Part shown: positions 2,403 through 60,340 of the stretch, piece by piece | How positions within the stretch are numbered: position 1 is the first letter of the stretch | Layout: the number at the start of each line of letters is the position of its first letter | DNA from: Omnitrophica bacterium GWA2_41_15 | GTDB taxonomy: Bacteria; Omnitrophota; Gorgyraeia; Gygaellales; UBA12090 | Length of the DNA: 64,000 nt | Assembly (NCBI GenBank): GCA_919902675.1 | Contig: CAKKRH010000014.1 | Coordinates: 21,393-85,392 of the forward strand | Direction: 5' to 3' | The notes under the pieces: model-generated | The model's database searches: none | What the model saw: only the letters and a program-made list of their open reading frames with translations | What the model was told of the DNA's origin: nothing | Position numbers and translations under genes: made by a program

Positions 2403-3425
2403 TTACTTCTCCGGCTGTGCCAGACGTTTCTTTAGGGCTGAAACTTCCTCATAAAGCCGCGGCAGTCTCTGAAGGCAGGCATTTACTTTTTTGGCCTCAC
2501 TGTGCGGCCTGGCCGGATACCCGGAAACAAAGGTATTCGCGGGAACAGATTTGGTAACCCCGGCCTGGGCGGCGATTATGGCGCCATCCCCGATTGTAAT
2601 ATGCCCGACTAAGCCGGCCTGACCGGCCAAGATGGCGTTATTTCCGATAACCGTGCTTCCTGAAATACCTACCTGGGATATAATTAATGTGTTTTCGCCG
2701 ATAATCACATTATGGGCGATTTGAACCAAATTATCAATCTTGGTGCCCTTGCCCACAATTGTCTTATCAAAACGCGCCCGGTCAATGGTAACATTGGCCC
2801 CTATTTCCACATCGTCCTGTATTTCTACGGTGCCTATCTGGGGGATTTTTTGATGCCTGCCGTTAACATTGATAAAACCAAAACCGTCTGAGCCAATAAC
2901 TGTTCCGCTGTGAATTATTACCCGGCTGCCGATGGTTATCTTCTCCCTTATCGAGACATGAGGATAGACAATACAATCATTGCCTATGGAACTGCCATAG
3001 CCGATAAAACATCCGGGATAAATAACCGTCCTGTCCCCTATTACCGCGTTATCATCTATTACCGTGTAGGCGCCTAAAGCCGCGTCTTTACCTAAAGATA
3101 CATTCTTACCGATGAGTGCGCTGGGATGAATTCCCACGGGATGACGCACCTGGGATGGACAGATATGGGAAACTACCCTGGTAAAGGCAAGCGAGGGATT
3201 ATCGGTCTTGATTATCGGTTTAAGCAGCGAACCAACATCCTTGGAGGTAATGATAGCCGAGGCATTGGTCTCATCCGCCAGACTGCCGTAGCGGGAATTA
3301 GCCAGGAAAGTAATATCTCCCGGCCGGGCCTCTTTTATTCCGCTGACTCCGGTTATGACGATATCCGGATCCCCCACTATCTCTCCGTCAATGAGCCTGG
3401 CTATTTCAGATAAAGTACTTTGCAT
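2403..3425 (-). CDS. lpxD: UDP-3-O-acylglucosamine N-acyltransferase
   Basis: 340 aa with an N-terminal UDP-binding region followed by long hexapeptide repeats. Its stop abuts the lpxC/fabZ start. Confidence 0.9.
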
Positions 3426-8170: not shown

Positions 8171-8332
8171 CGATTAAAACATATCGATAAACAATAACCG
8201 CTAACCAAAGAATAACCAAACACCAATAATCAATAACCAAACAATGGATTAGTTTCCAGCTTTATCATTGAGATTATTGATTATTGATTATTATTTGTGA
8301 TTTGGAAATTGGTTATTGATTATTGATACGGT
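8171..8332. repeat. long imperfect palindrome built from tandem short words (caataa/ccaaa series)
   Basis: The left arm ...aataaccaaacaccaataatcaataaccaaac is mirrored by ...tttggaaattggttattgattattg. It fills the whole rplI-dnaB spacer. Confidence 0.5.
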
Positions 8333-8776
8333 TTATTTCTTGACTATCCAAACCTTGATTGTAGCGGTGACCTCAGGATGCAGCTTTAAATCCATGCTAT
8401 AGACGCCTAAAGACTTTATCGGTTCGGCTAGAATGATATTTTTCTTGTCAATATCATAATCTTCGCTCTTTAACAATTTCTCAATCTCTTGAGCGTCAAT
8501 AGTTCCGTAGAGCTTATCTTCAGCCGTTGCCTCCCGGGTAAGGGTAAAAGACTCAGCCAGAAGTTTCTTGGCCAGGGCCTGGGCTTCTTTTTTATTCTTT
8601 TCTTCCGAGACAGCCTTAGAGGCCTCTAATTTTTCCTTAAGCTTTAAGTTTTCTTTTGTTACCGCCAGAACAAGTCCCTGGGGGAACAAAAAATTCCTGG
8701 CATAGCCGTCTTTGATATTAACCACATCCCAGGCCTTTCCTAATTTTTCCACATCCTGCTTTAGTATAACTTTCAT
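8333..8776 (-). CDS. rplI: 50S ribosomal protein L9
   Basis: Start reassigned to the ATG at 8776 (MKVILKQDVEKLGK...), which has a GGAGA RBS. The 29-aa upstream extension in the ORF track reads through repeat family C. Confidence 0.9.
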   Translation of the reverse strand: MKVILKQDVEKLGKAWDVVNIKDGYARNFLFPQGLVLAVTKENLKLKEKLEASKAVSEEKNKKEAQALAKKLLAESFTLTREATAEDKLYGTIDAQEIEKLLKSEDYDIDKKNIILAEPIKSLGVYSMDLKLHPEVTATIKVWIVKK

Positions 8777-10191: not shown

Positions 10192-10752
10192 TTAATTATA
10201 CTTATTCATCGCTGTTTCTATTCCCTCTTTCAACCAGCATAAAACCGCCTCTTTCGCCGTATCCAGAGACTGACGGATCGACTTCTTTTCAGAGGAAGAG
10301 AAATTAGTCAATACAAAATCGCCTAAATCCTGATTTTTTTCAGGTAAAGATATCCCGATACGCAGGCGGCTGAATTCATTTGAACCTAAAACCTTAATAA
10401 TGGAATTCAGCCCTTTATGGCCTCCGGAGCTTCCTTTGGCCCTGATTCTTAACCTGCCCAGCTCCAGGCTTATATCGTCGCAGACAACCAGGATATCCCG
10501 CGGGTTGAGCTTATTTATTGTTTTCAGCTTCAAGACGCTCTCACCGGAAAGATTCATATAGGTAAGAGGCTTGCATAAAATAACATCTTCTTTATTAAAA
10601 AAAGTTGTTGCCCGCGTTGAGCGGCTCTCTCTGTCAAGCTTAAACTCAAGCAGTAACTCTTTAGCAAGACCGTCGAGAGCCATAAAACCCAAATTATGCC
10701 GGCTGTTTCTATATTCCAGGCCGGGATTTCCTAAACCTACAACCAACTTCAC
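10192..10752 (-). CDS. pth: peptidyl-tRNA hydrolase
   Basis: 186 aa (MKLVVGLGNPGLEYRNSRHNLGF...), the canonical Pth N-terminus. Confidence 0.9.
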   Translation of the reverse strand: MKLVVGLGNPGLEYRNSRHNLGFMALDGLAKELLLEFKLDRESRSTRATTFFNKEDVILCKPLTYMNLSGESVLKLKTINKLNPRDILVVCDDISLELGRLRIRAKGSSGGHKGLNSIIKVLGSNEFSRLRIGISLPEKNQDLGDFVLTNFSSSEKKSIRQSLDTAKEAVLCWLKEGIETAMNKYN

Positions 10753-10836: not shown

Positions 10837-11544
10837 CTACTTTTTCTCTCCCGGAGCTGCCTTGGCAGAAACACCCTCCGCGCCTTCAGCCTTTTCCTTC
10901 TTCTCCTTAATCACTTCGGGCTCAGCCTTTGCCCCTTGTGCCAATGTTTCTTCAGCTGTTGGCGCGGCTTCTTCCTTGGTCGGAGCGACTACCGCTAATA
11001 CTGTCGCTTCAGGATCATTAAATACCTTCAAGCCTTGAGGGATAATCAGATTCCGGACATGAATAGAATCACCCACTTTTAAAGCAGTAACATCCACCTC
11101 AACTGACTTGGGTATCTGGGTAGGCAAACACTCAACCTCAATCTCCCAGAGGATATGATCCAATACCCCGCCGTCCTGTTTTACCCCCACAGACTCACCC
11201 TTGGCGGCAACCGGAACCTTTACTCTTATTTTTTTAGTCAGAGAAATCTGATTAAAATCAATATGCACTACATCGTCGGTGACCGGATTATGCTGGACAT
11301 GCTTGATCAAGACCGCCTTGTCTTCATTTTTCAGGTCTTCTTTTATCCTCAGGTTCAAAACAAAAGACTCACCGTGATGCGCCGACATTAAATTCACAAA
11401 ATCCTTTGAACGCACCTGTATAGTAAGCGTTTTTCGTCCTTCGCCGTAAACCACTGCCGGGATAATTGCCTGCTTACGCAGACGGTTAACCCTGCCTGTG
11501 CCTGTATCTTTTCTCATCTGCGCTTCTAAAATTATCTCTTCCAT
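10837..11544 (-). CDS. rplY: 50S ribosomal protein L25 / general stress protein Ctc
   Basis: The L25 N-domain is followed by a Lys/Glu/Ala-rich tail. The ATG at 11544 (MEEIILEAQ) is preferred because GGAG lies 6 nt upstream; the ORF-track start at 11556 is a GTG. Confidence 0.85.
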   Translation of the reverse strand: MEEIILEAQMRKDTGTGRVNRLRKQAIIPAVVYGEGRKTLTIQVRSKDFVNLMSAHHGESFVLNLRIKEDLKNEDKAVLIKHVQHNPVTDDVVHIDFNQISLTKKIRVKVPVAAKGESVGVKQDGGVLDHILWEIEVECLPTQIPKSVEVDVTALKVGDSIHVRNLIIPQGLKVFNDPEATVLAVVAPTKEEAAPTAEETLAQGAKAEPEVIKEKKEKAEGAEGVSAKAAPGEKK

Positions 11545-11564
11545 TCGTCGCTCCACTCCTCATA

Positions 11565-11649
11565 TCGCGAAACTACGCCGAACTATACGCGGAATCGCGC
11601 AATAAAGGTTGTGCGTAGTTCCGCGTACTATTCCGCGTGGTTCAGCGAT
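11565..11649. repeat. Repeat family A (ACGCGGAAC palindromic element), copy 1
   Basis: atcgcgaaactacgccgaactatacgcggaat...tgtgcgtagttccgcgtactattccgcgtggttcagcgat. It starts 1 nt after the prs stop codon. Confidence 0.8.
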
Positions 11650-11650
11650 T

Positions 11651-12589
11651 TTAATCAAATAATGAACTGACCGATTCTTCGCCGTGAATCCTCTTGATTG
11701 CCTCGCCAAAAAGTTCGGCTGCCGATAAAACCTTTATCCGGATATTTTTCTTGGAATCATCCAGAGGAATACTGTCAGTAATCACCAGCTCTTTAAGTTT
11801 TTTACATTTCTCTATCCGCTCAAGGGCCGAACCGCAAAGCACGCCATGAGTAATTGCCGCCCGGATTTCCTTGGCCCCCCGCTGGCTAAGAATCTCTACA
11901 GCTTCAATCAGTGAAGAACCGGTAGAGATAAGGTCATCAACCAAAAGGACATTTTTACCTTCAACATCGCCTAAGATATGCACCGCCTCGGTAGACTCTG
12001 GAGAAATCCGGCGTTTATCTACGATAGCCAGCCCTGCCTCCAGCCTCTTGGCATAAGCCCTGGCCATTTTAATACCGCCCACATCGGGAGAAACCACCAC
12101 CAAATCACTTAACTTCAACTTTTCAAAATACTCCACCATAACACCCACGGCAAAAAGATGGTCTAAGGGTATATCAAAGAAACCCTGAATCTGACCGGCA
12201 TGCAAATCCATGGTAAGAACCCGATCCGCCCCGGCCACAGTAATCAGATTAGCTACCAGCTTTGCCGTAATAGGAACTCTGGGCTGGTCCTTACGGTCCT
12301 GGCGGGCATAGCCGTAATACGGCATGACCGCGGTGATTCGTTTTCCGGAGGCCCTTTTCAGGGCATCAATAATAATCAAGAGTTCCATCAGGCTGTCATT
12401 AACCGGAGTACAGGTCGGCTGGACAACAAATACATCCTTACCACGAATATTTTCTTCTATTTTAACCCTGATTTCTCCTTCGCTGAACCTTCCCACCAAG
12501 CATTCAGAGAGCTTGATCTTAAGATACCTGCAGATTTTTTTGGCTAATTCCGGATTGGCATTACCAGTAACTACGGCTAATTTATCCAT
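11651..12589 (-). CDS. prs: ribose-phosphate pyrophosphokinase
   Basis: Start reassigned to the ATG at 12589 (MDKLAVVTGNANPELAKKI...). The 43-aa upstream extension in the ORF track reads through repeat A and overlaps glmU. Confidence 0.9.
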   Translation of the reverse strand: MDKLAVVTGNANPELAKKICRYLKIKLSECLVGRFSEGEIRVKIEENIRGKDVFVVQPTCTPVNDSLMELLIIIDALKRASGKRITAVMPYYGYARQDRKDQPRVPITAKLVANLITVAGADRVLTMDLHAGQIQGFFDIPLDHLFAVGVMVEYFEKLKLSDLVVVSPDVGGIKMARAYAKRLEAGLAIVDKRRISPESTEAVHILGDVEGKNVLLVDDLISTGSSLIEAVEILSQRGAKEIRAAITHGVLCGSALERIEKCKKLKELVITDSIPLDDSKKNIRIKVLSAAELFGEAIKRIHGEESVSSLFD

Positions 12590-12595
12590 ATAATG

Positions 12596-12681
12596 ATCGC
12601 TGAACTTACGCGGAACGCAACGCGGAACCACGCTTGATATGTTGTGCGTAGTTCCGCGTCCTGTTCCGCGTAGTTCCGCGC
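12596..12681. repeat. Repeat family A, copy 2
   Basis: atcgctgaacttacgcggaacgcaacgcggaaccacgc...tgtgcgtagttccgcgtcctgttccgcgtagttccgcgc. It overlaps the glmU stop codon by 1 nt and ends 6 nt before the prs ATG. Confidence 0.8.
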
Positions 12682-13943
12682 TATCCAATCGTCTTTCTAA
12701 GCGTCCTGGCCGGCACACCTACCACCACTTCTCCGGCAGAAACATCCTTGATTATCACCGAACCGCACCCTGTAACCGCCTTCTTCCCGATTTTGACCGG
12801 AGCTCTTAATATTGTATCGGAGCCGATAAAGGCTCCTTCTCCTATGACCGTCTTCTGCTTATTCTTACCGTCAAAATTAGCCGAAACAGTGCCGCAGCCG
12901 ATATTCACCGACCTCGAAACCAGGCAATCACCCAAATAACTAAAATGCTTCATCAGGGTATCCTGGCCAATGCGCGAGCGGACTACTTCGGTAAAATTAC
13001 CAATCACCGCTTTATCTTCAATCCTGGTGCCCGGCCTTAAATGACAAAAAGGCCCGATTGAGCAGAATTTTTTAATTATAACATCTTTTTCAATAACTGT
13101 AAAGGGATAAATTACGGTATCCCGGCCTATTTTACATCCGGCTTCTATATAGGTAGTATCCGGGTCAATAATACTAACCCCGGAGGCCATAAAATTGTCT
13201 AAGATCCGCTGGCGCATAATCTTTTGAGCCTGAGCCAAATCTATCCGCGAATTTATCCCCTGGGCCTCCCGGACATCTTGGCTTATACATAAAGACTGAA
13301 TAGCCTCACCCATGGCCGCCATTATCTTTATGGCGTCGGTTAGGTAATATTCCTTCTTGGCATTATCCGGTTTTATCCTGGCTATGGCCTTAAAAAGAAT
13401 ATCCTTCTTAAAACAAATTATCCCGGTATTTATTTCTTTGACGCTTTTTTGCTCCTGGGAGGCGTCTTTTTCTTCCACAATAGCCTGGACTCGGCCGTAA
13501 TTATCCCGGATAATCCTTCCGTATCCAAAGGGATTATCCATGCAGGCAGTCAAAATAGTAGCCGAGGCAAGGCTGGAAATATGCCTCTGGATAAGCTTCT
13601 TTAGGGTCGCGGCCTTTAAAAGCGGCTGGTCACCGTAAAGAATCAATAGATTTCCCGAAAAACCTTTCAGGGCGCTCTCTGTTCTTCGGACGGCATCGGC
13701 AGTGCCCACCAGCCTGTCTTGATATACGCTATCGGCCTGATATTCGGTGAGAATGCCCCGCAATAACTCCCTGCCATGGCCGGTGATAACGATGGTCCGG
13801 TCCAACTTAAGTGTTTGGGCCAAATCCAAGACATAGGCCAGCATCGGGCGGCCGCAAAGAGGATGCATCACTTTAGGGATTTCCGACTTCATCCGCGTGC
13901 CCTTACCCGCCGCCAAAATTATTCCCGCGAAATTATAGTTCAT
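12681..13943 (-). CDS. glmU: bifunctional UDP-GlcNAc pyrophosphorylase / GlcN-1-P N-acetyltransferase
   Basis: 420 aa with the N-terminal nucleotidyltransferase motif (IILAAGKGTRMKS) and a C-terminal hexapeptide-repeat acetyltransferase domain. Confidence 0.9.
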   Translation of the reverse strand: MNYNFAGIILAAGKGTRMKSEIPKVMHPLCGRPMLAYVLDLAQTLKLDRTIVITGHGRELLRGILTEYQADSVYQDRLVGTADAVRRTESALKGFSGNLLILYGDQPLLKAATLKKLIQRHISSLASATILTACMDNPFGYGRIIRDNYGRVQAIVEEKDASQEQKSVKEINTGIICFKKDILFKAIARIKPDNAKKEYYLTDAIKIMAAMGEAIQSLCISQDVREAQGINSRIDLAQAQKIMRQRILDNFMASGVSIIDPDTTYIEAGCKIGRDTVIYPFTVIEKDVIIKKFCSIGPFCHLRPGTRIEDKAVIGNFTEVVRSRIGQDTLMKHFSYLGDCLVSRSVNIGCGTVSANFDGKNKQKTVIGEGAFIGSDTILRAPVKIGKKAVTGCGSVIIKDVSAGEVVVGVPARTLRKTIG

Positions 13944-13990: not shown

Positions 13991-14356
13991 TCAATAATTT
14001 ATCAACCCCGATAACATCTTGCAGGTTTCATCAAGATTCTCTTTCAATGCTTTGTGTTTTTCTTCCCCTATTAATTTCTTTCGCTTACACAACTCAAGTA
14101 TCGGGATACACTCAAAAGCAGATCCTCGCGAAATCCTAAAAAAATTCTTTCTATCTGCTTTGCCATATCTGCCGTTACCCTCGGCAATATTGGCTGCAAT
14201 CGATAAAGCCGCACGATTTAACTGGTCGGTAAGATAATAATTGCCTTTTGAAAAACCTTCTGTCAGGCTGCTAATTTCGTCAGCAAAAGCGACCGCTTTC
14301 TGATAAACCTTGAGATTCTCAAACATAAAAGGCATAAGATTCCACCTTTTGAACAA
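13991..14356 (-). CDS. four-helix-bundle protein (23S rRNA intervening-sequence protein family)
   Basis: The motifs FENLKVYQKA...LTDQLNRAALSIAANIAEGNGR...FFRISRGSAFE are typical of this family. The true start may be an internal Met at 14335 or 14326. Confidence 0.75.
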   Translation of the reverse strand: MFKRWNLMPFMFENLKVYQKAVAFADEISSLTEGFSKGNYYLTDQLNRAALSIAANIAEGNGRYGKADRKNFFRISRGSAFECIPILELCKRKKLIGEEKHKALKENLDETCKMLSGLINY

Positions 14357-14461
14357 TAGAGCAATAGAAAATAGACCGCAATTGAGCTTTTATTTTTTTC
14401 TATTGCTCAATTTTCTATTGCTCAATTGCTCTACCAATTTTTGGCAAAGCCAAAAATTGGT
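14349..14461. repeat. Repeat family D, copy 1 (gaacaataga.../...ctattgctcaattgctc) plus a terminal hairpin
   Basis: Shares gaacaatagaRcaat...gaccgcaattgagc...ctattgctcaattgctct with 48190-48344 and 51828-51969. It ends in the hairpin ccaatttttgg-caaag-ccaaaaattgg, which overlaps the tRNA CCA end. Confidence 0.7.
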
Positions 14462-19154: not shown

Positions 19155-19256
19155 TTAACCCCAAGCTCTCTTCTTTAAGTGTCTGAGCTTACGACGCATC
19201 TTTTTTCTTTTATGCGTGCGTATTTTCTGTCTTTTTCTTTTTTTACCGCAAGGCAT
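19155..19256 (-). CDS. 33-aa highly basic protein resembling the AURKAIP1/COX24-like small basic protein family
   Basis: Absent from the ORF track because it is under 60 aa. ATG at 19256 with a GAGG RBS; product MPCGKKRKRQKIRTHKRKKMRRKLRHLKKRAWG; TAA stop at 19155. Confidence 0.55.
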   Translation of the reverse strand: MPCGKKRKRQKIRTHKRKKMRRKLRHLKKRAWG

Positions 19257-19270
19257 TTTTCCTCACTCTG

Positions 19271-19364
19271 TTTGCGAACCGCGAAACTACGCGGAATTTC
19301 ACGCGGAAACACGCGATACAATTTGTGCGTGGTTCTGCGCAGCGTTCAGCGTAGTTCCGCGGTT
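19271..19364. repeat. Repeat family A, copy 3
   Basis: gcgaaccgcgaaactacgcggaatttcacgcggaaacacgcg...tgtgcgtggttctgcgcagcgttcagcgtagttccgcgg. It begins about 3 nt after the hisG stop codon. Confidence 0.75.
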
Positions 19365-19367
19365 TTT

Positions 19368-20246
19368 CTAATATATTAACTTATTTAACGGATACTCGAT
19401 AATCCCCTCGGCTCCAGCTTCCTTAAGCTGGGGAATTATATTACGCACAACCTTTTCTTCAATTATAGTCTCAACCGCCAGCCAGCCTTCTTTAGCTAAG
19501 CCGGATACTGTGGGATTTTTCAGGGCCGGTAAAATACCGGTTACTTTCTTTAGGTTTATCCGCCTCACATTCATCTTCAGGCCAACCTTGCCCTCAGCCT
19601 GGATTGCCCCTTTTAATAAAAGGCAAATCTGCCGCATTTTGGCTTTTTTCCAGGAGTCTTTATAAGAAGCATTGTTAGCGATAAACTGGGTAGTGGAGAA
19701 GATTATCGCGGTAATTTCTCTTAGTTTATGCGCCCGCAGGCTTCTGCCGGTTTCAGTCAGCTCCACAATCGCGTCCACTAAACCGGAGGCTACCTTAACC
19801 TCGGTCGCCCCCCAGCTAAACTCCACATCGGCGTTAACCTTATTTTTCTTTAAAAATTCCTTGGTAGCGTTAACTAATTCCGTGGCAATAATTTTTCCCT
19901 CTAAATCCTTAACGCTCTTTATATTTGAGCTCTCCGGCACAGCCAGCACCCAGCGCACCGGATTCAGGCTCTGTTTGGCGTATACCAGCTCTTCTACCCG
20001 CGTCACATCCGAGCCATTTTCTAATATCCAGTCATTTCCGGTAACCCCGCAGTCCAGCGCTCCATCCTCAACATAGCGGGACATCTCCTGTGCCCGCAAG
20101 AGAACCGGCTCAATCTCCGGGTCATCAATAGAAGGCAGATAAGACCTTTCCCCCACATGCACATTAAAACCCGCCTTCTTAAACATACTGAAGGTGGCCT
20201 CCTGCAGGCTTCCTTTAGGCAAACCGAGTTTTAATATTTTTTTCAT
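19368..20246 (-). CDS. hisG: ATP phosphoribosyltransferase (long form)
   Basis: 292 aa ([12 protein letters not shown]...) with the C-terminal regulatory domain present. Confidence 0.9.
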
Positions 20247-21901: not shown

Positions 21902-22059
21902 CCCGGATTTTGCAATAGGAATGCGGCACCGAGACGCCAAAGAAGGATGCAGATTTGGCAGAAAAAAGTGCGCGCATACTTTTAGTATGTAAGCGCTTTT
22001 TTCTGACGAAGATGCGCCCTTATTTGGCGGCGAATGCCATTACTATTGCAAATTCCGGG
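21902..22059. mobile_element. MITE family B, copy 2 (158 bp)
   Basis: TIRs cccggattttgcaatagg / ctattgcaaattccggg, with a direct 5-bp duplication ATTAT at 21897-21901 and 22060-22064. The interior forms a long imperfect hairpin. Confidence 0.75.
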
Positions 22060-22371: not shown

Positions 22372-22442
22372 AAAAAAAGGGGTCAGAGTCATTTTTGAAT
22401 TGTTGTTGTCTCACAAGCAAAAATGACTCTGACCCCTTTTTT
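22372..22442. terminator. ~25-bp perfect inverted repeat flanked by A- and T-tracts (bidirectional terminator-like)
   Basis: aaaaaaaggggtcagagtcatttttg ...loop... caaaaatgactctgacccctttttt. It lies between the 776-aa gene and the 71-aa ORF. Confidence 0.6.
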
Positions 22443-48189: not shown

Positions 48190-48344
48190 ACACTGTAAAA
48201 TTAGTTTTTAGTGACAAAACTGCTGTTTTGAACAATAGAACAATTGAACAATGGACCGCAATTGAGCATCAGTTCTATTGTTCTATTCTCTATTGCTCAA
48301 TTGCTCTGTGCGCTGTCATATTAAAGATTAATTTGACAGCGCAC
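48190..48344. repeat. Repeat family D, copy 2
   Basis: ttagttttt...gaacaatagaacaattgaacaatggaccgcaattgagc...ctattgctcaattgctct plus the hairpin gtgcgctgtca...tgacagcgcac, whose last base is the first base of the ilvB stop codon (read on the plus strand). Confidence 0.75.
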
Positions 48345-50020: not shown

Positions 50021-50107
50021 AGTTAAACTTAAAAGTAAAAAGTAAAAATTTAAAAATTTAAAAATTTTTATTTTTAACCGGAACTTTTGCCTTTTTACTT
50101 TTTACTT
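50021..50107. repeat. imperfect palindrome of aaaagta words
   Basis: aaaagtaaaaagtaaaaatttaaaaattt... is mirrored by ...cctttttactttttactttt. It fills the ilvD-ilvB spacer. Confidence 0.5.
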
Positions 50108-51760
50108 TTACCTTAATATAGCTCCCTTGTCCGCGGAACTGACCATCCGGGCATAACGGGATAAATAGCCTTCGGTTATCTTGGGCTTGGGTTTCTTGAT
50201 TTTGGCTAATCTTGCCTTTAATTCTTCGTCGCTGATTACCAACTCTAACTTTCTTTTAGGAATATCTATCTTTATAATATCACCGTCACAAACCGCGGCA
50301 ATCGGGCCTCCGGAATAGGCCTCAGGTGAAATATGGCCGATGCATGGGCCGCGGGTGCCGCCGGAAAAACGGCCGTCGGTAATCAAGGCCACACAATCGG
50401 CTAAACCCATGCCCACAATCGCCGAGGTGGGAGAAAGCATCTCCCTCATTCCCGGGCCTCCGGAAGGGCCCTCATAACGGATAACCACTACCTGCCCCTT
50501 ATGGATCTCACCATTCAAGATGGCCTTCATCGCCTCTTCCTCGGAATTAAAGCATATTGCCTGCCCTTGAAAAAGCTTCATCTTCACGGATACCGCCGCC
50601 TGCTTCACCACTGAGCCGCCGGGAGCAAGATTGCCGTAAAGGACAGCGATACCGCCTTCTTTATTATACGGATTATTCAAAGGACGAATCACTTCGCTAT
50701 CGGTAATTTCCGCCTCATCGGCGATTGTATAAATTGATTTGGTATTTACCGTAGGATTGTTCTTTAGGCTTTCTTTGAGCCGCTTTAAGACCGCGGGAAT
50801 CCCTCCGGCGTATTCCAAATCCTCCATATAAAAATTTCCTGTGGGCTCCAGAGAACAAATATTAGGAGTAACCTTGGAAATATCATCAAACAGCTTAAGC
50901 GGCAGGTCCACTTTAGCCTCGTTGGCAATGGCCAAGAGATGCAGCACCGTGTTAGATGAACCGCCTAAAGCCATATCCACGGTAATGGCATTATGGAAGG
51001 CGCGCTTATTCATTATCGAGCGCGGAAGGACATTTTCTTCTACCAGGCGGACTATTTTTCTGCCCGATTCAAAGGCAATTCTCTCTTTCTTGGCTAAGGC
51101 CACCATGCTGGTGGCACAGCCTGTCAGGCTCATCCCCATGGTCTCAGTAAGACAAGACATAGTATTAGCGGTGTAAAGGCCCTGGCAAGAGCCGGAGCCG
51201 GGACAAGCGCACATCTCAACGGTTTCAATTTCTTTTTGAGAGAGCTCGCCTGTTTTTGCCTTAGCCACGGCCTCAAAGGTATCCCGGACCAAAGAAAGCC
51301 GTTTTCCCTTAAGCCTTCCGGTTACCATTGGCCCGGCGGTTACTATGATTGACGGAATATTCAGGCGGGCCGCGGCCATCAGCATTCCGGGAGTAATTTT
51401 ATCGCAGTTAGTAAGCAAAACCAGGCCATCCAAACAATGGGCATTGGTAATAGATTCAACCATATCCGCGATCAGCTCCCGCGAGGCCAAGGAATAATGC
51501 ATTCCGGAATGCCCCATCGCGATTCCGTCGCAGATTCCGGGGATGCCAAAAACAAAAGGCCTGCCGCCTCCGGCATAAATCCCGTTTTCGATCGCGCTCT
51601 CTAAAGGGCGCATCTGGGTGTGTCCGGGAACCAGGTCGGTAAAACTTGAGGCAATCCCGATAAAAGGTTTACCCAAATCTTCGCGGGTAATGCCGGTAGC
51701 AAAAAGCAAGGCCCGGTGAGGAATCCTCTCTATGCCTTTTTTAATTGTATCCGAACGCAT
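50108..51760 (-). CDS. ilvD: dihydroxy-acid dehydratase
   Basis: 550 aa with [12 protein letters not shown] and the other ILVD/EDD family motifs. Confidence 0.95.
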
Positions 51761-51827: not shown

Positions 51828-51969
51828 TAGTGCATTGTTAAGTTAGTTTTTGAACATTAGAACAATAGAACATTAGACCGCAATTGAGCTTTTGTTTGTC
51901 TATTGTTCTATTGTCTATTGCTCAATTGCTCTGTGCGCTGTATTATTAAAAATTAAATTAACAGCGCAC
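51828..51969. repeat. Repeat family D, copy 3
   Basis: ttagtttttgaacattagaacaatagaacattagaccgcaattgagc...ctattgctcaattgctct plus the hairpin gtgcgctgt...acagcgcac, which overlaps the fba stop codon in the same way as in copy 2. Confidence 0.75.
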
Positions 51970-57309: not shown

Positions 57310-57397
57310 ACCGCTGAACTACGCGGAACTTGACGCGGAACTACGCGTGACATACTGTGCGTGGTTTTAGCGTACAGTTCCGCGTAGGTTCCGCGCC
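57310..57397. repeat. Repeat family A, copy 4
   Basis: accgctgaactacgcggaacttgacgcggaactacgcg...tgtgcgtggttttagcgtacagttccgcgtaggttccgcgcc, between metK and ahcY. Confidence 0.8.
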
Positions 57398-57410: not shown

Positions 57411-58580
57411 TTACAACCTGGCTGCTTGTTTCTTCAAATCCGCGGCCTTATCGGCCTGCTCCCAACTGAATTCGGCTTCAGTCCGGCCAAAATGCCCGTA
57501 ACAGGCAGTCTTCCTATATATCGGACGCAGAAGATCCAGGCTCTGGATCATCCCTTTGGGGGTAAGGTCAAAATTGCTATTAATCAATTTGATTATAGCG
57601 TCATCGGAAATCTTTCCGGTGCCGGAGGTATCCACATAAATAGACAAAGGCTCGGCCTTGCCGATCACATAGGCCAGATGAATCAGGCACTTATCGGCGA
57701 TACCGGCAGCCACGATATTCTTAGCCACATACCTGGCCATATACGCGGCAGAACGGTCCACCTTGGTTGGGTCCTTGCCGGAAAACGCCCCTCCGCCGGA
57801 AGCAACCATGCCGCCGTATGTATCCACCACAATCTTTCTTCCGGTCATCCCGGTGTCCGACTGCGGCCCGCCAACCACGAATTTTCCGGTCTGATTAATA
57901 TAATATTTAGTGTCTTTATCTATATATTGTTTAACTATCGGTTTTACTACAATATCAATGATTTCCTGTCTGGCCTTTTTGGTGATGTGCAGGCCTGAAG
58001 CATCCAGGATATCCTCGGTATGCTGGCAGGCGATAACCACTGAATCCACTCTTTTAGGATGATTGTCTACATACTCTACCGTAACCTGGCTCTTGCAGTC
58101 TGGACCTAAATATTTCAAGGTCTTGGCTCTTCTGACATCGGCAGTCTTCTTCACCAGCCGATGCGCGAGCATAATCGGTAAAGGCATCAGCTCCGGGGTT
58201 TCTTTACAGGCATAGCCGACCATAAGCCCCTGGTCTCCCGCCCCGCCGGAATCCACCCCTTGAGCGATATCCGGGGACTGAGTGTGTATGGTATTGATAA
58301 CCGCGCAGGTATGATAATCAAAGCCGTATTTGGGATGATCGTAGCCTATTTCCTTTAGTATGTCCCGGGTAAGGTTATGCACATCAACAAAACCGGTAGT
58401 GGTGATCTCGCCACCCACAATCAAAAGCCCCATAGTTACATAGGTTTCACAGGCCACCCTGCCGTAAGGATCTTGCTTTAGAACGCAATCCAGGACTCCG
58501 TCTGATATCTGATCGCAGACCTTATCCGGATGCCCCTCACCTACTGATTCCGAAGTAAATAAAAACTTGCGCTTTTCCAT
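57411..58580 (-). CDS. metK: S-adenosylmethionine synthetase
   Basis: 389 aa with [13 protein letters not shown] and [16 protein letters not shown]. Confidence 0.95.
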
Positions 58581-59453: not shown

Positions 59454-59560
59454 AATCGCGGAACAACGCGGAACTGGACGCGGAACAACGCAATATAAGT
59501 TATGCGTGGTTCCCTGCCTGCTGAGCAGGCGCGTTCCGCTCTGCGCGTAGTTCAGCGGAT
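59454..59560. repeat. Repeat family A, copy 5 (with an extra internal hairpin gcctgctgagcaggc)
   Basis: aatcgcggaacaacgcggaactggacgcggaacaacgc...tatgcgtggttcc...gcgttccgctctgcgcgtagttcagcggat. It abuts the stop codon of the upstream gene and ends 6 nt before the next ATG. Confidence 0.75.
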
Positions 59561-60340
59561 TTAGAGAAATTCAAACACATCCGAATAATCGTATTTATCC
59601 GGATTATTCAGAAAATCAAACTTCCGCGCTTGAACGCGCGCTAAAAAATACATTGGCTCACTGGAACTTAAACCGAACTTTTCTATTTTTTTAAAAGGAC
59701 GGGCCACTCTCATCTTGGGCACTTCCTGATAATAAGGGTTAGCCTCAAAACGTTCGCCTAAACTATCCTCAAAGACAAAATAGGCCGCGCCGCCTTCCAT
59801 TTTATAAAGTTCATATTCCGGAGAAAATTCAGATGAGACCCAGCGAGAAACAACCAAATGAGTTTTACCGGTATTTATCAGGGTATGTCCGTATTCCGGA
59901 GGGATAACAACCTTATCTCCCGGGGCAGCCTTAACCAGAATCACATCCTCTATAATCCGGCTATTTTTAACATCTTTCTTCTGCAATAAACACCAGGCCT
60001 CACCATATACTACTTCGTATAACTCGCCATGGCCGCCCCGGTGATTTTGTCCGGCGGTCTTCATCAACTCGTTACCCAATTTGCCGGGGCGGATAACAAT
60101 AATATCATACCTTAGTTTATTCCCGCGGATAATATCTTCATCCTTGATATCACGCAGGCCGCGATATATATAATACAATTGCTCCGGGGCGGTTATGCCT
60201 TTGCGGGGCGGAATTTCCTTTGGTTCTTTTAAATATCTGACTTCCGGCTTAATTTTATTTAAATTCTTCCCTAAAATCAGGGAATGTTTTTTAAGATCTA
60301 ATTTAAGTTCTAAGCCCGACGTTTTGCTCAAATCCTCCAT
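59561..60340 (-). CDS. cupin-type glucose-6-phosphate isomerase-like protein
   Basis: 259 aa. The segment LRYDIIVIRPGKLGNELMKTAGQNHRGGHGELYEVVYGEAWCLLQ...VVIPPEYGHTLINTG resembles archaeal cupin PGI as I remember it, with one motif His replaced by Gln. Confidence 0.5.
   Translation of the reverse strand: MEDLSKTSGLELKLDLKKHSLILGKNLNKIKPEVRYLKEPKEIPPRKGITAPEQLYYIYRGLRDIKDEDIIRGNKLRYDIIVIRPGKLGNELMKTAGQNHRGGHGELYEVVYGEAWCLLQKKDVKNSRIIEDVILVKAAPGDKVVIPPEYGHTLINTGKTHLVVSRWVSSEFSPEYELYKMEGGAAYFVFEDSLGERFEANPYYQEVPKMRVARPFKKIEKFGLSSSEPMYFLARVQARKFDFLNNPDKYDYSDVFEFL

Follow-up and report, generated by a model that had tools for sequence, protein, structure and literature searches.

Palindromic elements at operon junctions of a Candidatus Omnitrophota contig as probable ORF-less relatives of GxxExxY nuclease cassettes

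We analysed a 64-kb stretch of a Candidatus Omnitrophota contig (hereafter the window; its phylum was assigned from its prs gene), in which five palindromes of 85-107 nt lie between co-directional minus-strand genes. Elsewhere, the two mirrored modules that make up these palindromes bracket a gene for a GxxExxY protein, and the window copies are therefore probably derivatives of a small insertion cassette that lack its open reading frame (ORF), that is, non-autonomous copies resembling miniature inverted-repeat transposable elements (MITEs). The observations that bear on this reading concern the architecture of the elements, their association with a nuclease gene, their presence or absence at orthologous sites, the range of sequences into which they have inserted, the conservation of their units and not of their spacers, and the lack of compensatory change.

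Each arm of a palindrome is a module of four direct CGCGGAAC-like 8-mers, whose starts are 10, 12 and 10 nt apart (spacers of 2-3, 4 and 2-3 nt). On the transcript strand the consensus of each element reads CGCKGAAC-n2-3-CGCGGAAC-n4-CGCGGAAC-n2-3-CGCAYAAC, a loop of about 10 nt, and then the four units inverted; in copy 1, four CGCGGAAC-like units are followed by the loop of about 10 nt and by four GTTCCGCG-like units. The original prediction, made from the letters of the window, had counted two to three direct units per arm, but the arms hold four, the outermost and innermost of which are degenerate. The same prediction had placed all five palindromes correctly, as direct reading, alignment and a profile search agree, and its distances to the stop codons of prs, glmU, hisG, metK and the cupin-type glucose-6-phosphate isomerase (GPI) gene are borne out by the coordinates, with the proviso that, the flanking genes all being minus-strand, the 'upstream' gene is the one at higher coordinates. 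In all five copies, the element starts between -1 and 13 nt past the stop codon of that gene. The elements and their neighbours, whose names are corroborated by Pfam, are as follows (SD, Shine-Dalgarno sequence):

11565..11649, minus strand: copy 1, ORF-less, between prs (stop 11651-11653, 1 nt before the element) and the L25/Ctc gene (ATG 11544, SD GGAG at 11551-11560)
12596..12681, minus strand: copy 2, between glmU (stop 12681-12683, overlapping the element by 1 nt) and prs (ATG 12589, 6 nt past the element, without SD)
19271..19364, minus strand: copy 3, between hisG (stop 19368-19370, 3 nt before the element) and a 33-aa lysine/arginine-rich ORF (19155-19256, minus)
57310..57397, minus strand: copy 4, between metK (stop 57411-57413, 13 nt before the element) and the S-adenosylhomocysteine hydrolase gene (ATG 57291, SD AAGGAG)
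59454..59560, minus strand: copy 5, between the cupin-type GPI gene (stop 59561-59563, abutting the element) and a nucleotidyltransferase gene (ATG 59448, 5 nt past the element, without SD)
59516..59530, no strand: mini-hairpin, GCCTGC tga GCAGGC, nested within one arm of copy 5, in its 4-nt spacer

A profile built from the five copies matches only those five in the window (E-values of 8e-30 to 2e-26). The motif ACGCGGAAC, with at most one mismatch, occurs 23 times in the window against 8.6 +/- 3.0 times in shuffled sequences, a count that none of 100 shuffles reached, and 20 of the 23 occurrences fall within the five elements. Every copy can form a long interrupted hairpin from either strand (dG -43 to -56 kcal/mol, z -3.8 to -9.3), and the two strands fold equally well. 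Copy 2 is the best preserved of the five. The centre, described earlier as always TGTGCGT, is exactly that in four of the five copies and TATGCGT in copy 5, and the termini given as ATCGCKGAA...TTCAGCGAT match approximately only. Of the two elements predicted to end 6 nt before the next ATG, the one preceding prs does so, whereas the one preceding the nucleotidyltransferase gene ends 5 nt before it; both junctions lack an SD, as had been claimed. Copy 5 is longer than the others because the 15-nt mini-hairpin at 59516-59530 is nested in a spacer. A comparable nested G+C-rich hairpin was seen in the corresponding spacer of one arm in both palindromes of another contig (L138, 10675-10784 and 11984-12102), and its occurrence in these three palindromes suggests that the 4-nt arm spacer is a hot spot for secondary insertion.

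A link to a mobile cassette comes from loci in which the modules stand apart. Two loci found through the DNA pattern (L147 and L177) carry inverted modules about 400 nt apart that enclose a GxxExxY gene whose last codons enter the 3' array; its product matches TIGR04256 ('GxxExxY protein') and PF13366 (PDDEXK_3), with E-values of 1e-27 and 2.5e-28, above the cut-offs. In a third pattern-derived locus (L166), a GxxExxY gene is accompanied by variant arrays. As an independent test, homologues of the protein were sought by a protein-homology search and their contigs were then examined; the named matches belong to Elusimicrobiota and to several lineages of the candidate phyla radiation (CPR). All eight loci retrieved in this way (L180, L181, L184, L190, L191, L193, L198 and L200) show the bracket, in the order 5' array (0-15 nt after the stop codon of an upstream co-directional gene), ORF, inverted 3' array (at or just past the ORF stop), and the SD and start of the next gene. 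Thus, at 11 loci, eight retrieved by homology and three by pattern, the gene of 125-140 aa between two mirrored modules encodes a GxxExxY protein. The unit sequence varies among cassettes while its two sides stay reverse-complementary (CGCGGAAC/GTTCCGCG, CACGGAAC/GTTCYGTG, CACWAAAC/GTTTNGTG and CGCRAAAC/GTTTYGCG), and many of the homologues have tails or heads encoded by the modules, such as ...QRSSAYSSA or ...RETDAK.... The contig of L147 belongs to Omnitrophota by its SmpB, and an ORF-bearing cassette with canonical units therefore exists in the phylum of the window. In addition, the window copies carry at their centre a sequence (CGCACAAC...AAGCGTGGTTC) that matches the inner ends of cassette L180 (CGCACAAAAA-TTG... 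and ...TTTTAAGCGTGGTTCTGCG), which is the trace expected after loss of the ORF. The same termini thus bracket a potential autonomous relative, whose role as a transposase is hypothetical.

The GxxExxY protein itself has the marks of a nuclease. Among 29 homologues, which share 55-84% identity, residues E29, P67-D68 and E78-x-K80 do not vary, and its structure model (pLDDT 94) adopts a PD-(D/E)XK fold, the nearest solved folds being Cas4, lambda-type exonucleases and Hjc resolvases, all of them distant. Its profile gave no match at E <= 1 to the sequences of solved structures in the PDB, and no meaningful match was found in PADLOC or PHROGs, so that it is not a known defence or phage family. 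A search for more distant GxxExxY genes among all retrieved loci returned only those already known. In the literature searched, GxxExxY, PF13366 and TIGR04256 yielded one catalogue entry ('Unknown') and incidental mentions, and no description of GxxExxY cassettes or of the CGCGGAAC repeat was found; the catalogue lists GxxExxY/PDDEXK_3 as of unknown function, with 'multiple transfers' (PMC3424549). Literature searches with the 8- and 9-mers returned primer sequences only, as GTTCCGCGT belongs to a thrombin-site linker.

Comparison of orthologous junctions provides a second line of evidence, since close relatives are empty where the window is filled, as is usual for MITEs. In L194 (GCA_040960175.1), L195 and L196/L197, whose prs is 87-88% identical to that of the window, gene order is kept and the element is missing at all three junctions examined (glmU/prs, prs/L25 and hisG/small ORF). 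At the empty glmU/prs junction, the genes overlap by ATGA in L194 and are separated by 6 nt with an SD in L196; the empty prs/L25 spacer of L194 is 19 nt; and the hisG and small-ORF genes of L194, L195 and L196 are 13 nt apart, with the sequence TGAaaggagcgaggtaATG. The insertion point lies between the stop codon and the SD, and at the junction of copy 2 the SD was lost through the insertion. By contrast, two more distant genomes (L123 and L176, prs 80%) have a CGCGGAAC palindrome at prs/L25, and their other junctions hold palindromes of the same type or of other units. Taken together with the ORF-carrying versions with the same termini and with the insertions in coding sequences and RNase P RNA described below, the empty sites favour the non-autonomous mobile element over the other options that had been offered for the palindromes.

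Two side observations touch on translation at these junctions. The prs frame (window 11651-12718, minus) meets no stop within copy 2 and extends as far as a GTG at 12718, which lies in glmU, and ORF callers may therefore give prs a false N-terminal extension of 43 aa. Furthermore, ATGAGGAG-n-AGCGACGAATG, an SD and start, lies 3' of the 3' array at prs/L25 in both the window (11544-11564) and L176 (about 2417-2440), and at two different junctions of L123 (about 2140-2165 and 3165-3190); the element may thus bring a ribosome-binding leader for the downstream gene. The 33-aa lysine/arginine-rich ORF downstream of hisG (19155-19256, minus; MPCGKKRKRQKIRTHKRKKMRRKLRHLKKRAWG) is conserved, has a strong SD and is also called in L196/L197.

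The elements have also entered genes. In CPR-like contigs, they occur in frame inside murC, tsaD, clpB, GluRS/GlnRS-type (gltX-type), glycosyltransferase, DegT-type and miaA genes, in either orientation; the window itself holds no such insertion. In RNase P RNA, a palindrome extends helix P12 in L146 (2011-2487, element 2176-2270) and in L142 (10404-10836, element 10587-10680), and these RNAs still score 169-183 bits against RF00010. Further copies lie between smpB and the tmRNA gene and in a spacer of an rRNA operon. The murC genes of four CPR contigs (L122, L129, L139 and L140), which are about 80% identical, carry a solitary module at the same site, translated as ...FRVVPRLVPRGSA..., and here third-codon positions are invariant in 7 of the 9 module codons but in only 3 of the 28 flanking codons (p = 3.5e-4).

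A search for compensatory changes, which had been put forward as a check on the element, gave a negative answer. In an alignment of 31 palindromes, RNAalifold found 17 invariant pairs, a covariation term of +0.24 and a single compensatory event, and the variable positions (position 4 of the unit, and the spacers) form standard pairs in 6/31, 14/31, 14/30, 13/31, 8/31, 6/31 and 15/31 sequences, that is in 19-48%, against about 37% by chance. This, together with the synonymous constancy in murC, leads us to conclude that it is the 8-mers that are constrained or homogenised, and not the stem. Such a pattern would be expected of repeated protein-recognition sites and appears unlike that of a selected RNA structure. 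The earlier suggestion of an array of protein-binding sites fits in so far as the units are invariant, the spacers free and the 10/12/10 phasing fixed, which makes the units candidate sites. A Rho-independent (intrinsic) terminator can be set aside for the five copies, since direct reading finds no U run after the stems; these are followed on the transcript strand by GCGAUAUGAGG, GCGAUCAUUAU, GCGGUUCGCAA, GCGGUAUAUAA and GCGAUUUCUUA, with the next gene within 5-20 nt. The statement that the element matches no RNA family is correct for Rfam 15, whose covariance models at gathering thresholds returned only tRNA from the whole window and gave no match with E <= 1 in 11450-12800.

Beyond the window, a scan of one genome per species with ACGCGGAACNNNACGCGGAAC returned mostly chance matches or coding 12-nt tandem repeats in high-GC genomes, and its genuine relatives came from Candidatus Omnitrophota, Patescibacteria/Saccharibacteria and Elusimicrobia. 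The long, exact 12-nt tandem repeats with CGCGGAAC in high-GC genomes (L044, L091, L097, L108, L079, L022 and L110) were judged unrelated and probably encode PDAE/TRNR-type low-complexity peptides. A stricter three-unit pattern retrieved 61 loci from metagenomes, mainly of groundwater and sediment. Of the 79 distinct four-unit modules in these loci, 74 have a middle start-to-start spacing of 12 nt and 46 have the full 10/12/10 arrangement. The 42-nt modules exist singly or as inverted pairs, and a hairpin is therefore not required.

The orientation and placement of the elements had been proposed as diagnostic, and here the outcome is divided. Within the window, all five copies have the same orientation relative to transcription; as 58 of its 60 long ORFs are on the minus strand, this is weak evidence (1 in 16 by chance). 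GC skew is negative across the whole window (-0.07 to -0.19), and with its genes co-oriented with replication on a single replichore, orientation to transcription is here inseparable from orientation to replication. In other genomes, the orientation to flanking co-directional genes is mixed, with about 14 in the same and 10 in the opposite direction (9 and 5 among confident calls), whereas the ORF-bearing cassettes are all co-oriented with their operons. Random orientation and a lack of any link to stop codons elsewhere in the genome had been named jointly as grounds for giving up the original prediction; orientation does vary, but the link to stop codons holds, because insertion falls into very short stop-SD-start spacers.

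Genes of a second family are bracketed in a similar manner. PF05635 genes (23S_rRNA_IVP, bAvd-like four-helix bundle) lie between co-directional genes at operon junctions in L200 (2218-2589) and L198 (7329 to about 7710), where their brackets are inverted arrays of unrelated short direct units, GAGACAAG/GGACAAGG with CCTTGTC and GAAGTAGG with CCTACC/CTTCC. These brackets tie the GxxExxY cassettes and the intervening sequence (IVS) type of element together. The window itself contains at least four other families of short-unit palindromes. A second family, at 14351-14431, 48220-48290 and 51850-51915, has arms of GAGCAATWGA-type tandem units and a conserved centre AGCTCAATTGCGGTC, with a GTGCGCTGTCA...TGACAGCGCAC hairpin ahead of two of its three copies; it may be the ORF-less form of another cassette type. 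Two further intergenic palindromes, at 50022-50114 and 8175-8335, differ in their units, which are GTAAAAA in one and, in the other (62-nt arms), CAATAA/AATAATCAATAACCAA. The sole region of the window with plus-strand genes holds a palindrome with 46-nt arms (21935-22029) and a perfect inverted repeat of 25 nt that has an A run on one side and a T run on the other, resembling a bidirectional terminator (22373-22442). Finally, palindromes of the same build and other units (GTTAGCCAGTT/AACAGACA; GTTCAKG x5) were seen in L176 (3470-3590 and 9720-9880) and L123 (9540-9690) at junctions that CGCGGAAC palindromes occupy in the window. Hairpin families turn over at fixed operon junctions.

It seems reasonable to propose the following course of events. 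A complete cassette consists of four direct CGCGGAAC-type 8-mers, the GxxExxY gene and the same four units inverted; once the gene is lost, the two arrays would face each other directly across a loop of about 10 nt, as they do in the window. The 8-mers, spaced at 10/12/10 nt or roughly one helical turn, may serve as recognition sites for a GxxExxY nuclease acting in trans, the arrays being the cis-acting ends of the element. Insertions would persist where they do least harm, namely in the gap between stop codon and ribosome-binding site, in frame in tolerant protein loops, and at the tips of RNA helices. The window elements would be co-transcribed with their operons and fold into interrupted stems of 35-40 bp, which RNase III probably cuts, by analogy with the IVSs of rRNA; cutting would uncouple the two cistrons, and translation of prs and of the nucleotidyltransferase gene, both of which have lost the SD, would then depend on a processed or folded leader.

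Several points weigh against the derivation of the window elements from a nuclease-driven cassette. Solitary modules, that is one arm without an ORF, are common and conserved, and an element with two ends leaves them unexplained. Mobilisation by the GxxExxY nuclease is an inference, and binding or cleavage of the arrays by it is suggested by analogy only, as is the cutting of the stems by RNase III. We know of no PD-(D/E)XK protein of this size that acts as a transposase by itself. A search of the window found no GxxExxY gene within its 64 kb. No target-site duplication could be recognised between filled and empty sites, whose flanks have diverged and where the ends are themselves palindromic. 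The elements of L123 and L176 at the same junctions as in the window would need either a target preference or an ancient insertion followed by precise loss in the closer relatives. Finally, since 23S_rRNA_IVP genes are bracketed likewise by other short units, the ORF may be cargo and not engine.

This last point leads to an alternative that we regard as unlikely, though deserving of serious attention, in which the arms are the whole element and the ORF is a passenger: an IVS-like hairpin family would spread by means that the host encodes or that the structure itself drives (for instance template switching, or recombination at a hairpin or cruciform), with no mobility role for GxxExxY. The unrelated arrays around the 23S_rRNA_IVP genes of L198 and L200, the at least four other palindrome families in the window, and the different palindromes of L176 and L123 at junctions having the CGCGGAAC type in the window would all accord with it, as would the Coxiella IVS, with tandem heptamers in its stem and a seemingly dispensable ORF (PMC4990558). 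Nevertheless, C[AG]CNRAAC-type arrays accompany all eight homology-retrieved and all three pattern-derived GxxExxY genes, with units that change between cassettes, and catalytic residues that are invariant over 29 homologues would be unexpected in a decaying passenger. More doubtful still is a host-selected RNA element of the kind known as repetitive extragenic palindromic (REP) sequences or bacterial interspersed mosaic elements (BIMEs), which would stabilise the upstream message or act as an intercistronic processing site that sets the expression ratio of the neighbouring genes. The great stability of the hairpins, the position of all five inside operons, directly past stops and in one orientation, the prs/L25 palindrome in three species and the presence of palindromes of other families at other junctions all favour such a role; against it stand variable positions that pair at chance without compensatory changes, the equal folding of both strands, the mixed orientation in other genomes, the closest relatives without the element, and the occurrence of the module singly, in coding sequences either way round and in RNase P RNA. 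A secondary effect on mRNA is likely as part of the cassette explanation.

We consider it very improbable that the units are binding-site arrays for a host protein (a regulator, a nucleoid or segregation protein, or a DNA-uptake receptor) that are kept because they are useful to the cell. Invariant 8-mers with free spacers and helical spacing, synonymous-site conservation in murC, and solitary modules in which a hairpin is unnecessary are what such arrays might show, but presence or absence at housekeeping junctions of close relatives, flanking genes that share no function, and linkage to a nuclease gene whose flanks change units together are not, and a density of 5 per 64 kb in tandem layout is unlike known uptake sequences. 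We give hardly any credence to the idea that these are REP doublets forming hairpins (REPINs), moved by a REP-associated tyrosine transposase (RAYT) whose gene lies in another part of the genome. Two modules of about 42 nt in inverted orientation do form a hairpin of about 90 nt, modules occur both as singlets and as doublets, and the CPR contig L200, which has a cassette, carries a Y1_Tnp gene 4 kb away; however, that gene has no adjoining arrays, the module is not itself a hairpin and lacks a GTAG-type head, and the gene between inverted modules is GxxExxY in every case. Some further candidates were rejected outright. ECF-sigma -35 promoters (GGAAC), LexA Cheo boxes and CsrA GGA sites would require a spacing and partner motifs that the elements lack; Rho rut sites do not suit elements that are G-rich and structured; coupled mini-ORFs like those of mycobacterial interspersed repetitive units (MIRUs) would need start codons overlapping stops, of which there are none; DNA uptake sequences are set aside by the low density and tandem units; and a small ORF or leaderless promoter at the SD-less junctions by the lack of a -10-like hexamer at the right distance.

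A broader proposal, which we put forward tentatively and which may well not hold, is that GxxExxY proteins (PF13366), which form a widespread family, are nucleases of an undescribed class of selfish cassettes, whose ends of four phased 8-mers co-evolve with the protein, and that these cassettes and their ORF-less hairpins move between Omnitrophota, CPR/Patescibacteria and Elusimicrobiota, colonising operon junctions, coding sequences and structural RNA genes. Were this true, then, together with the 23S_rRNA_IVP cassettes, the classical rRNA intervening sequences would be one manifestation of a much broader family of 'transcript-embedded' elements. Independently of this proposal, the CGCGGAAC family brings together phenomena that are mostly considered separately, namely operon hairpins of the REP-like kind, palindromes inserted in frame into proteins, and the intervening sequences of structural RNAs. 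GxxExxY/PDDEXK_3 gains a first genomic context and a testable candidate substrate, the 42-nt array of four 8-mers. The elements also help to account for many unexplained insertions in CPR proteins and RNAs, and offer a marker for genes passing between Omnitrophota and Patescibacteria, two groups that live together in groundwater and are known to exchange genes (PMC12455944). For annotation, these elements create false N-terminal extensions and remove Shine-Dalgarno sequences, and predictions of start sites and operons should allow for them.

The element shares features with several known systems, the nearest being 23S rRNA intervening sequences with or without an ORF, REPINs and Rickettsia palindromic elements. 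Like REP, BIME and REPIN sequences, it is a short interspersed repeat in operon spacers just past stop codons, occurs as singlets and inverted doublets, and has a dedicated gene flanked by inverted copies. REP-type hairpins affect mRNA stability, as in the malE-malF case of E. coli. In the manner of a REPIN, two inverted units form a hairpin (-43 to -56 kcal/mol; 31 aligned palindromes). A REP unit, however, is itself an imperfect palindrome with a head tetranucleotide, whereas the present module consists of four direct 8-mers with non-complementary spacers and has no internal hairpin; a RAYT is a Y1 (HUH) gene flanked by repeats, whereas the bracketed gene is GxxExxY/PDDEXK_3 at 11 loci; and the CGCGGAAC element is not strictly extragenic. 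The earlier REP/BIME-like option therefore survives as an analogy only, in the inverted module pair in operon spacers. Rickettsia palindromic elements (RPEs), of about 100 nt, are said, after Ogata et al. in 2000, to lie in frame in protein-coding genes, in RNA genes and between genes, and to our knowledge have no associated gene. The present palindromes likewise occur in frame in coding genes (in the CPR-like contigs), in RNA genes and in intergenic regions; they differ from RPEs in having four-unit arrays, no relation in sequence and hosts in other phyla. The MIRUs of mycobacteria are reportedly (Supply et al., 1997) intercistronic in operons and touch the flanking stop and start codons, and to this extent resemble the window copies, but unlike them are direct tandem repeats of 46-101 bp with small coupled ORFs, no inverted arms and no nuclease gene.

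There are likenesses also to MITEs and to the intervening sequences of rRNA. The Correia elements of Neisseria, which are MITEs, are co-transcribed with their neighbours, and their hairpin is processed by RNase III. Like these, the elements described here are non-autonomous, about 100 nt long, with inverted termini and presence/absence polymorphism; unlike them, they have no recognisable target-site duplication, their termini are 8-mer arrays, and the candidate trans-acting protein is not a DDE transposase. The IVSs of rRNA are either ORF-bearing (Coxiella and Leptospira, with S23p/23S_rRNA_IVP) or ORF-less (Salmonella-type, about 100 nt), and the CGCGGAAC family likewise has both forms, in each of which terminal inverted repeats form a long stem round a loop with or without a small ORF. 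That of Coxiella, a selfish element 428 nt long, has a terminal stem of 28 bp and is excised by RNase III, and tandem heptamers (GACAGAT) lie in the stem region just upstream of its ORF, where RNase III cuts (PMC4990558); rRNA genes of the CPR also carry IVSs and 23S_rRNA_IVP ORFs (PMC11270868). Insertion in transcribed DNA at the tip of an RNA helix, here in the P12 copies, and a patchy distribution that suggests horizontal spread are further points in common. The five window copies differ in lying in mRNA between cistrons and not at the helix tip of a structural RNA, and the family as a whole differs in its PD-(D/E)XK GxxExxY cargo, its fixed four-unit 10/12/10 arms, and its occurrence in frame in coding sequences and as single arms. 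In summary, the element resembles a REPIN or MITE in the way it works and an intervening sequence in its appearance, but fails defining tests of both REP/RAYT systems and rRNA IVSs.

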